Assembly (NCBI GenBank): GCA_038087875.1
Contig: CM075996.1
Span: forward strand, 3,164,001-3,228,000
Length of the DNA: 64,000 bases
Direction: 5' to 3'
Source: Malacoraja senta
Lineage: Eukaryota
The notes beneath the pieces are model-generated. The model had not been told where the DNA came from. It did no database searches and saw nothing but the letters and a program-made list of their open reading frames with translations. The position numbers were made by a program, and so were the translations under genes. Shown here one piece after another: positions 38,601 to 41,600 of the stretch (the stretch's first letter is position 1; each line of letters begins with the position of its first letter).

Positions 38601-41600
38601 GACTGTGTGAACACACCTTAAGATGCTCACACCTCACCATTTTAAAGCACAGTACACCTTGGAGAAAAGGCACTGCATGACGAGAATTAATGTTCAGAAA
38701 CCTGAGAATGGCAACTTAAACAATGTAAATAATTCAGTCAAACGACAGGCTTCAGGTTATTGGCAAAAGAAACAAGAGGTAAAACATCAGTCTGAAGAAG
38801 GGTCTCGACCCGAAACGTCATCCGTTCCTTCTCTCCAGAGATGCTGCCTAACCCGCTGAGTTACTCCAGCTTTTTGTGTCTACCTTCAAGAGGTAAAATA
38901 AAGTTTCTTTTAAAAACTAAAATTATGAGGAGGTAAAACCCCAAAAGGATGGTTTGATTCTAACATTTAACGAGAAATGGATAAGTGCTTGAAAAGGGCC
39001 CAAAATCTGCTGGGTGATAAATGGCAGCTAGGATAGTTAGATCGAGATAGTTGCGCAGTTTCTGTGATTCTGTTAATGCAGCTTTAATTTAGTTGTAAAT
39101 GATCAGTCCACTACTGCTGATAAACTTTAAAAGCACAAAACCTTCCCTTTACATTGAGTACAAACGTAATGGCTAGATCAAATCTATATTTTTTATATTT
39201 TATAATATTTCAAATACTATCTACACAAATGCAGCAGCAAGTATCTGCACAGCAAGATAGCCGCAAGCAAAACTAAGATGAATAGCCTGTTCACATTTTT
39301 GATAACGCTCCATAAAAGAGCAAATGTCGGTCAGGGCATTCATGCTAAAATATCATGAGCCCTTTCAGTGTTTAAATAGACCAGAACATTTCATTTAAGA
39401 GGGCATGTCCTCTGCAATCTACTTTTCTTCCCTCCACCACATGGTACGGGGCGGCACGGTGGTACAGCAGTAGAGTTGCTGCCTTACAGCGCTTTCAAAG
39501 ATGTTGGTTCGAACCTGACTACGCGTGCCGTCTGTACAGAGTTTGTACATTCTCCCTGTGATTGTGTCGGTTTTGTCCAGGTGCTCTGGTTTCCTTCCAC
39601 ATTCCAAAGACATTTGTAGGTTAATTGGCTTCTGTAAATTGTAAATTGTCACTAGTGTGTAGGAAAGTGCTCGTGTACGAGGGATCGGGCTCGGTTGGCC
39701 GAATGACCTGTGTCCGCCTTGTATCTCTAAACTAACTAAACATACTGCTGACAGCGACAAGAAATGCTGCAAAACTAGAGTGCTCAAGCTTAAATATATA
39801 CGCAAAGAGAATCATAAAAGTTTCTTGACTTTTAAGGGTTAGGAACAATTATTATTGTAAAAGACACATTTTTTTCAAAGTTATATTCTTCCCCTGTGTC
39901 ACGAAGCAAGTAAACTTGACGCAAAGGGGGCTACATAAAGGGGTCTGCAAATCATATATAGATCTATCTTATGTTTAAGAAGGAACTGCAGATGCTGGAA
40001 AATCGAAGGTAAGACAAAAATGCTGGAGAAACTCAGCGGGTGAGGCAGCAACTATGGAGCGAAGGAAATAGGCAGCATCTATGGAGCGAAGGAATTAGGC
40101 AACGTTTCGGGTCGAAACCTTCTTCAGACTCAAGATAAGATCTATCTTATCTATCTTCACTCAAGATAAGATCTATCAAGATAAGACCTATCTAACCCTT
40201 CTTCAGACTCAAGATAAGATCTATCTTATACTTACTGCCTTTTTCCCTGGAATAGCACATTCCCAGTTCATTAAGTTTAAAGTACCATCTGGATTCTTTG
40301 TGGGTACTGCAACAAAACCCTGTAGGTAGGACAAAATATACGAGTTAGAAATGAACGTACTTCATTTCAGGTCATCATTTGTAAAAGTTTCTCGACAGAT
40401 ATAGAAAATACATAGAACAGTGGAGCACAAGAACAGACCCTCTGGCCCCAATGTCTGTGCCGAACATGATGCCTAGATAAATTAGTCTTCTCTGCCGGCA
40501 CGTGATCCATATCCCTCCATTTGCTGCATATCCATGTAATACAATAAAGACTTCAATGCCATTGTGTTATCTGCCTCTACCACCACCTTGGCAGCATATT
40601 CCAGGCACCCATCCCCCTTTTGGGTAAATAAAACTTCCTCCTCACCTCTTCTACACAAACCTACAGGACCTCGACCATAAATAAAGCAATAGACTTGAAT
40701 ATGCTTCCTCTCCAACAGGGACATCAAGTTGCCAGCAGTGAGTCACGACAAAACACACTGATCTGCAGGATCAAATATCTGTTTCTCCCCAACATTTAAT
40801 CACAGAAATTGTTCAACGCACCATTCGGTGAAGATTTTATTCAAAGGTTTATTCCTCTCGGGCAGCACAGTGGTGCAGTACTAGAGTTGCTGCCTTACAG
40901 CACCAGAGACCCAGGTTCGATCCCGACTACAAGTGCTGTCTGCACGGAGTTTGTACGTTCCCCGTGTCCGCGTGGGTTTTCTCCAGGTGCTCCGGTTTCC
41001 TCCAACACTCCAAAGACATACAGGTTTGTAGGTTAATTGGCTTCAATAAGTTGTAAAAACAATTGACCCTAGCGTGTTAATGTAGAGTGATCGCTGGTCG
41101 GCGCAGACTCGGTGGGCTGAAGGGCCTGTTTTTGTACCTCCAAAGTAAAGTCTAAATACTTTATTTGTCTTTTGCCAACTCCTGCAGCAGCCAGAAGTGT
41201 AAAAACAGAATTTCTGATTGCAATGTAATCATCTGAAATTCCTTTATTTTTGCTTAAAAGTAAAATAGTCAAAACAGTATCAAACTTGCATTTGTTTCCT
41301 GATGTTTTGGCAACAACAGGCAAAGTCCATCCATCCTTTCCTTCTACCTTCAAATCATCAGCTTTCCTAATGTGATTCTAGAATGAGCAGCCTGGTTATA
41401 GGTACATGACTATTTCACTACATTCCTCACCTTTTCCTCATCCTCCAGTGTAGCTTAAAACTCATCAACTTCTAGTTTACACGATGAGATAATGAATCAT
41501 TTTGCATCAACCTATAAATAAGATTTAACTCTGAAAAATGTTGATCCTTTACTCAAACTATTAATTGGAAATTTTCGACCATACTCCTTCTTACGCCAAA

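Follow-up and report, generated by a model that had tools for sequence, protein, structure and literature searches.

Short hammerhead-bearing inserts in a Malacoraja senta window as probable truncated ends of Neptune-type Penelope-like elements

In this study, we analysed a 64,000-nucleotide stretch of Malacoraja senta DNA (contig CM075996.1, forward strand, positions 3,164,001 to 3,228,000; hereafter the window), in which a dense family of short inserts carries a minimal hammerhead ribozyme motif. We consider it probable that these inserts are 5'-truncated ends of Neptune-type Penelope-like elements (PLEs) with a known minimal hammerhead, that they were likely copied from uncut RNA, and that they are predicted to be inert once inserted. 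The features that carry this reading are listed by window position (pLTR, pseudo-long terminal repeat; TSD, target-site duplication; ORF, open reading frame; RT, reverse transcriptase).

56715..57879, minus strand: 5'-truncated 1,165-bp Penelope-like copy of probable Neptune type, with an 8-bp TSD (56707-56714 / 57880-57887)
56982..57879, minus strand: stop-free ORF remnant with a GIY-YIG match (Pfam PF01541, E 1.3e-4)
38773..38784, plus strand: left TSD of the anchor copy, 12 bp, with an identical 12-mer at the right (38887-38898)
38785..38886, plus strand: anchor copy, a tail-less 102-bp pLTR end that starts 7 nt before the hammerhead core
38790..38821, plus strand: minimal hammerhead, from a motif pattern match and core inspection, with covariation in relatives

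Penelope-like origin and anatomy of the inserts

An earlier interpretation made without database searches (the sequence-only reading) had called the inserts Penelope-derived, and this was confirmed by the physical link of the motif to an RT-thumb/GIY-YIG frame in one TSD-flanked copy. Read from 57879 to 56715 on the minus strand, this copy contains in order the RT thumb, a cysteine linker, GIY-YIG, a pLTR, an intact hammerhead (C3 at 56843) and a tail. Behind the ORF frame comes a pyrimidine-rich repeat, then the hammerhead and the tail. The stop-free frame of 304 codons lies 140 nt upstream of the motif, both are under one 8-bp TSD, and the RT core has been lost from the frame through truncation. 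Among 1254 candidate proteins, 220 longer ones matched the frame at E<=1e-20, the best being a Stegostoma protein with 62% identity, a match by which the host belongs to the cartilaginous fishes. A domain scan of four matching proteins found RT in three and RT together with GIY-YIG in two.

Studies have defined PLEs by a CCHH signature with two cysteines between GIY and YIG, and a cysteine linker CX2-5CxxC marks the Neptune and Nematis groups (PMC8557442). In the window frame, C224 and C227 stand between the LIY and YIG motifs and are followed by H246 and H262, all four being invariant or nearly so in 18 aligned sequences, and the linker reads C181-x4-C186-xx-C189 (CX4CxxC), which fits the CX2-5CxxC pattern. 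Nematis is not among the PLE groups detected in vertebrates in the available text of bioRxiv 10.64898/2026.07.22.740005.

Three window copies have ends linked to ORF sequence (57879-56715, 35047-35354 and 20172-about 20755). In seven long copies, the 95 nt upstream of TCAGT were 51-63% identical in pairwise comparison, except for 81% in one pair of the same subfamily; from TCAGT onward the pairwise identity was 57-91%, better than that of the upstream part in most pairs. Because the upstream pLTR sequences differ between long copies, several subfamilies feed the pool.

Related elements were collected by profile search from metagenome contigs (80 loci). Two direct pLTRs flanking a full-length ORF were seen only in a relative, L004: in this apparently complete element (L004:961-4155), the two direct repeats that bear the motif are 3,066 bp apart and enclose an open frame of 989 codons, and the locus is a usable model for experiments. 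In 3/3 relatives checked, the upstream motif stood at the front of an open frame of 989-1139 codons. We also observed that the motif and tail at 27452-27580(+) form one stop-free frame of 43 codons; the ORF of relatives starts within the motif or beside it. The Stegostoma protein P0001 appears to read through the pLTR, ending in residues compatible with a translated hammerhead motif, and its gene model is probably a transposon copy.

For the census, a profile hidden Markov model (HMM) was built from 10 window copies and run on the whole window. It found 40 family segments and none in the reversed window; 18 were on the plus strand and 22 on the minus strand, a split to be read as that of a small sample with uncertain gene limits. 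Grouped by eye, these segments make about 29 insertions in 28 intervals, one of which contains a nested pair, and in total they occupy 6,108 bp (9.5% of the window). TSDs were exact at the tested length in 10/11 short copies checked, to which the long copy adds its 8-bp TSD. The 12-bp TSD claimed earlier for the 102-bp copy was found as described (CAAGAGGTAAAA at 38773/38887, insert 38785-38886). For the second copy described earlier, at 41882-42036, the TSD is real (ATACCAAATTACACA at 41868/42037) and measures 15 bp rather than 14, with a one-base ambiguity at the boundary; the interval itself is not one copy but a head-to-head pair under a single TSD, with arms of 100 bp (tail-less) and 54 bp (tailed). 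The minus arm, 41883-41982, has an intact core (C3 at 41977) and is sense to the UBE2I pre-mRNA, and the short plus arm is 41983-42036. The further members of the family are as follows.

41883..42036, both strands: head-to-head pair, 15-bp TSD
35047..35469, both strands: inverted pair, 14-bp TSD; minus arm with ORF end, pLTR and tail, plus arm without tail
16432..16678, both strands: head-to-head pair, one tail, 13-bp TSD; both arms begin 2 nt before the core
27400..27591, both strands: head-to-head pair, one tail, 9-bp TSD; near-intact core at 27455(+)
2669..2888, both strands: head-to-head pair, one tail, broken cores
14946-15107; 25680-25883; 43938-44132: head-to-head pairs
17217-17590: head-to-head pair, tail on both arms
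20172..about 20755, minus strand: long copy from another subfamily that extends to the ORF end and is split by a nested pair at 20424-20615 (12-bp TSD)
from 15736: long copy of another subfamily
53863..53963, minus strand: tail-less single copy, intact core (C3 at 53957), start 6 nt before the core; no TSD was found in its flanks
11498..11624, plus strand: single tailed copy
14298-14364; 15920-16055; 18299-18399; 19570-19785; 39973-40216: single copies
43258-43410; 48472-48580; 49312-49420; 61863-62120: single copies
6189; 33222-33293; 33899-33978; 45981-46074: old fragments

Copies insert into older copies, as seen at 15920-16055 inside the long copy from 15736 and at 20424-20615 inside 20172-20755. 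The host of the 15920-16055 insertion (15736-15911 and beyond 16063) belongs to a different pLTR subfamily, with CCAGA before the core.

The inserts have two alternative 3' ends, with and without a tail, about 35-40 nt apart. All 10 inverted pairs are head-to-head, and in 9/10 the tail is on one arm only (binomial p 0.011). The window shows these parts of the anatomy of EN+ (endonuclease-positive) PLE insertions: pLTR, optional tail, adjacent inverted truncated arm and TSD of variable length. Studies have described a head-to-head inverted truncated pLTR with an optional tail of 30-40 bp for endonuclease-positive (EN+) PLEs (PMC3846280, PMC8557442), and single stubs together with head-to-head pairs are a textbook signature of Penelope. 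In the PLE of Anolis, two 3' ends correspond to two internal RT start sites, and both target strands are cut and extended (PMC11167929). By analogy with that element, the protein of the present family would nick the target and start reverse transcription from either of two internal sites that lie downstream of the hammerhead, and the ends with and without a tail may correspond to these two priming sites. If both target strands were primed, from the two sites, a head-to-head pair with a single tail would result. A DNA transposon or miniature inverted-repeat transposable element was ruled out, because the inverted arms are unequal and joined at variable points and the TSD length varies. The 5' junction of the copy 39973-40216, at 40131-40216, contains several short repeats of target-site letters and, in addition, the beginning of the motif in an aborted copy of 15 nt, as if RT had jumped repeatedly.

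The hammerhead motif and its predicted activity

The pattern CTGANGA-N0-3-GGGTC-N0-6-GACCCGAAAC matched exactly at two places, 38792-38816(+) and 41953-41977(-), and at none in 100 shuffles. Both places had been named as intact in the sequence-only reading and are letter-perfect, and the 13 places it gave as variants all fall inside family segments. The number of intact copies is four and not two: all core letters, G10.1-C11.1 and the CG palindrome are retained in 4/40 segments (38792+, 41977-, 53957- and 56843-), and near-intact cores lie at 27455+ and 17476+.

The hammerhead at 38790-38821(+) consists of a 2-bp stem I, the CUGAAGA box at 38792-38798, an extra A, a 4-bp stem II with a CUCG loop, GAAA, the CG palindrome and GUC, with the cut site after 38819. 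On structural reasoning, a reading of stem II as 4 bp with a loop of 4 nt is better than one of 5 bp and a loop of 2 nt. Stem I, earlier put at 2-4 bp in most copies, is 2 bp in this family. Its position 3 is an A-C mismatch in 7/7 window variants and is paired in 13/16 other variants. A 4-bp stem I occurs in the old diverged copy at 45981-46074(+), which carries CUGAUGA, compared with 2 bp in the young subfamilies.

The related loci allowed the stems to be compared. Without any pairing requirement, the motif pattern gave 37 matches in 33/80 loci, with the central CG in 29/37. Covariation was evaluated in 23 distinct variants (16 from related loci and 7 from the window), using shuffles in which kinship is ignored. 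Stem I positions 1-3 were paired in 51/69 cells (shuffle mean 25.5; 0/10000 shuffles reached 51), and stem II positions 2-4 in 56/69 cells (shuffle mean 39.5; 0/10000 reached 56). The core features and these covarying stems support the earlier assignment to minimal type I hammerheads, and judged by its comparative pattern the motif is a genuine minimal hammerhead, of the type described in 2014 (PMC4209133). An Rfam scan gave no hammerhead family among 11 matches at E<=1, which we read as its models missing a motif without helix III and not as counter-evidence. A 30-base DNA pattern had no match in metagenome contigs. Across window copies, the non-CpG core letters showed 19/257 mismatches versus 348/2232 downstream (Fisher p 2.6e-4), which is the excess of core conservation that had been expected of a functional motif. 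We read this excess as probably due to selection in active parent lineages and not on the stubs.

For the four intact copies, a fold constrained to the hammerhead was 3.5-9.0 kcal/mol above the best fold, the probability of stem II was <=0.1, and the CUGAAGA box was predicted to pair with the downstream pyrimidine run in a rod beginning at about -1 to -7 (C3 = 0). Folding z-scores of seven copies were -0.7 to 1.3, which indicates no unusual stability, and the rod fold had no covariation support. A palindrome duplex between two copies was predicted at about -3 kcal/mol. The nearest intact or near-intact partner on the same strand is 11-12 kb away, and inverted pairs hold their cores in opposite orientation. 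Studies have shown that PLE hammerhead monomers of this class do not cut and dimers cut weakly (PMC4209133), and that 8/9 Xenopus dimers did not cut (bioRxiv 10.64898/2026.07.22.740005). For the Anolis PLE, RNA-seq showed no ends at the cut site, the hammerhead required the element's protein, and uncut RNA was the main template (PMC11167929). On the folding models, the stubs probably would not cut as single copies, and by analogy with Anolis protein-assisted cutting may occur.

The sequence-only reading had further proposed that the family seeds self-cleavage sites in host introns, its minus-strand copies being in sense with the UBE2I and TEX33 pre-mRNAs. The host gene concerned is as follows.

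26620..45360, minus strand, outer limits approximate: UBE2I, with coding exons near 45304, 40265, 37231, 29202, 28964 and 26647

UBE2I is indeed on the minus strand, and 41977(-) is in sense with it; the anchor copy 38785-38886(+) is antisense in the intron between the exons near 40265 and 37231. Seeding of self-cleavage sites is unlikely: with intact cores in 4/40 segments, 41977- is the only one in sense within the UBE2I coding span, and both the distance to same-strand partners and the unfavourable hammerhead fold speak against it.

Start points of the stubs and the template RNA

The 5' ends were placed on a scale with C3 = 0, on which a cut at GUC would give an end at +28. By eye, the 5' end was readable in 36 segments, and four of the 40 (6189, 33293, 45981 and the internal repeat 40072) were omitted as undeterminable or duplicate. 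Seven of the 36 are long copies that start over 100 nt before the core, beyond the range that was tested. The other 29 start at -2 to -8 (13), at -14 and -28 (2), inside the motif (9), near the cut site (2, from one event) or further downstream (3). None of 20000 uniform simulations placed 13 of 29 ends in one 8-nt window before the core. A stricter test (9/15 ends; 3/20000 simulations) is biased by the choice, in pairs, of the arm that fell in the tested interval and is not used as support. In the copy 39973-40216 the true start lies at -3, and the G in front of it could stem from a cap; there are one or two such cases only.

Contigs of four public runs (18,161-215,315 per run; run X19 is probably DNA) were aligned to 56600-58000. 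Loose contig ends with unrelated AT-rich flanks were found at -3 in 4/4 runs (606, 688, 709 and 109 contigs; agreement 0.31-0.33), and likewise at -2 in one run (636 contigs). Ends at -5 (773-1003 contigs) mostly continue into the upstream pLTR of another subfamily, the type of the anchor copy. Among the 24 of 5261 rows listed, no row of loose ends stood at +28 or -1. In the same alignments, a contig of another organism (run X4) has the same flank-tail junction at 56715 with 8 differences, and this shared junction indicates that the insertion predates the split of the two organisms.

The base at -3 is the A of TCAGT, which is kept in 6/7 long copies and which we take to resemble an initiator. 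A TCACT motif resembling an initiator has been noted (PMC3846280), and in the D. virilis element the pLTR contains an internal promoter that includes an initiator (PMC2377424). Because the 5' ends cluster just before the motif and not at the cut site, copying from uncut RNA is suggested. The A of TCAGT would be the likely RNA start, with the hammerhead at the front of the transcript; copying that begins in the first repeat would run off the start of the RNA after about 100 or 135 nt and leave a stub, and longer copies would stem from priming in the downstream repeat. The simplest reading, which the DNA ends suggest, is that the stub 5' ends are run-off to the start of uncut RNA.

The same pile-up might mark a barrier in place of a start, with RT dropping off at the upstream pyrimidine tract or the RNA being trimmed to a folded or protein-bound unit; the origin of the inserts would be the same. 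We regard this as possible but rather doubtful. In its favour, all seven long copies have 76-90% pyrimidines over -45..-4, the predicted rod fold starts at about -1 to -7, and the ends scatter over 7 nt. Against it, the best-supported ends with unrelated flanks include the A of TCAGT in all four runs, the upstream tracts diverge between subfamilies to the extent given above while TCAGT is kept, and the D. virilis promoter offers a precedent for a start inside the pLTR.

Several points weigh against run-off from the start of uncut RNA and against the wider assignment. The RNA start is deduced from DNA ends. The window ends, placed by eye, range from -2 to -8, and most of them therefore include bases upstream of the proposed start A. 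In AT-rich flanks, an A present by chance makes -2 and -3 hard to tell apart. The missing row at the cut site is weak evidence, given the 24 of 5261 rows listed and some uncounted ends, and TCAGT is not conserved before the motif in non-shark relatives. The Neptune assignment was drawn from motifs and not from a tree with reference sequences, and the element is known here from truncated copies and from no full-length member of the family. Finally, the sequence-only reading treated the core excess as an indication of function; the copies are related to one another, and certain downstream blocks show equal conservation.

Abundance, known systems and neighbouring features

In three DNA runs, the summed contig depth, which is not a copy number, was 20-32 million over the region from hammerhead to tail, 0.1-8 million over the ORF and 22-85 over the flanks. 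In agreement with the density in the window, this depth points to very high abundance of the family in at least three related organisms. Depth from hammerhead to tail several times that of the ORF would also be expected if the stub were a non-autonomous element resembling a short interspersed nuclear element (SINE), with initiator, internal promoter and RT-loading site within 100-135 nt and mobilised in trans, and in a rotifer pLTR sequences alone sufficed for integration in trans (PMC3846280). We consider this unlikely: 5' truncation gives the same depth excess, both main stub types have long or ORF-linked versions, and no 3' transductions were noticed. A more elaborate scheme seems to us improbable. 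In it, the stub would be a self-sufficient capped RNA from the A of TCAGT that spread in trans, SINE-like, to some hundred thousand copies, its ribozyme locked in the rod fold until the ACGU palindrome is paired by the element's protein or by a second copy. Intronic copies on the sense strand could then be cut in trans by the abundant RNA of the family, and the rare dimers in head-to-tail order would be incipient retrozymes.

We found no support for the earlier proposal of a retrozyme-like non-autonomous family, whose copies would self-cleave as dimers in host pre-mRNAs or yield circular RNA, and we now regard it as highly improbable. In its favour, the motif is a true minimal hammerhead, and one chondrichthyan genome contained tandem retrozymes (bioRxiv 10.64898/2026.07.22.740005). 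Tandem dimers may exist, since a head-to-tail joint repeating a 127-nt unit was listed in all four runs (4, 6, 4 and 1 contigs, with a depth of 92-310). However, this joint, read from its two sides, has about 1e-5 of the depth of the family. The 40 window segments include no tandem dimer of full cores, and only the four named are intact, with a 2-bp stem I and a catalytic box predicted to be paired, and the published monomers, Xenopus dimers and Anolis RNA-seq cited above point the same way. What the window contains is dispersed single or inverted 5'-truncated ends of several subfamilies, grading into ORF-bearing copies. The retrozyme identity was therefore rejected, there being no head-to-tail tandems in the window and the same end being continuous with ORF remnants in three copies. 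An origin of the stubs from spliced or lariat RNA, as in D. virilis, whose intron end maps to helix I (PMC4209133), is very unlikely: 7/7 long copies have a pyrimidine tract ending in CAG at -4..-2 (e.g. 17430-17475(+)), which resembles a 3' splice site, yet such a template predicts ends at -1 and a shared upstream exon, whereas the upstream letters are unrelated, -1 is not among the loose ends listed, and 13/13 window ends, lying at -2 or beyond, retain the AG in whole or in part, for which reason this origin was rejected. In the parent element, the AG before the core may nonetheless serve as a true acceptor; if this CAG acceptor were used, the spliced RNA would carry a different stem I.

Compared with the minimal hammerheads of metazoan PLEs (PMC4209133), the family shares the CUGANGA box, the extra nucleotide before stem II, G10.1-C11.1, the palindromic 15.2-16.2 that replaces helix III, the position in the pLTR, and the occurrence mostly as single dispersed motifs and as opposite-strand pairs 100-700 bp apart. 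It differs in its stem II of 4 bp and stem I of 2 bp, the latter being found there only in D. virilis. The taxa named in the available text of that paper are bony fishes, coelacanth, Xenopus and reptiles, and not cartilaginous fishes. With Neptune EN+ PLE insertions (PMC3846280, PMC8557442), it shares the C-terminal GIY-YIG with CCHH, the cysteine linker, variable TSDs of 7-15 bp, the head-to-head arm, the tail at one end and heavy 5' truncation; it stands apart in its extreme density (about 29 insertions, about 9.5%) and in a large class of 100-135 bp stubs with a common start. Poseidon PAc of Anolis carolinensis (Frangieh et al. 2024, PMC11167929) likewise has two 3' ends, a hammerhead at the front of the ORF and uncut RNA as the main template. 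It belongs to a different clade by its linker motif, the biochemistry is that of PAc while the window family is known from sequence, and a 5' run-off end is not described for PAc in the available text. Animal non-LTR (long terminal repeat) retrozymes (PMC7229834; bioRxiv 10.64898/2026.07.22.740005) are also short and non-coding, with a type I hammerhead and a relation to PLE pLTRs. In contrast to the dispersed TSD-flanked singles and inverted pairs of the window, they form head-to-tail tandems (units of 150-450 bp, PMC7229834) and are expressed as circles.

The motif and the insertion anatomy were thus already published, and what this study adds is lineage and scale. In the literature searched, which left most subscription papers, Repbase, Dfam and supplements outside its scope, no paper was found that deals with the family in cartilaginous fishes or with stubs whose 5' end lies at the edge of the hammerhead. 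Should the 5' pile-up hold across the whole genome, a living vertebrate lineage would lend support to what was found in vitro, namely that uncut RNA serves as the template. The hammerhead would then be unnecessary for making the 5' end, which narrows the question of the purpose of the PLE hammerhead.

Other features of the window were also recorded. The TEX33-like gene gave two collinear minus-strand Pfam matches below the cut-off (E 0.0013 and 0.17), and its exon had no usable ESM Atlas match. A stop-free frame of 946 codons at 6620-9460(-), with AP endonuclease and RT domains, is a young long interspersed nuclear element (LINE), which we take to be CR1-like, and many 3' fragments of related repeats lie elsewhere in the window. 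A second, fragmented LINE, presumably L1-like, has endonuclease- and RT-like frames at 29712-33241(+), antisense within a UBE2I intron. At 3738-4860, a satellite of GT-rich units with GGGGTGGTTAG is reminiscent of degenerate telomeric repeats.

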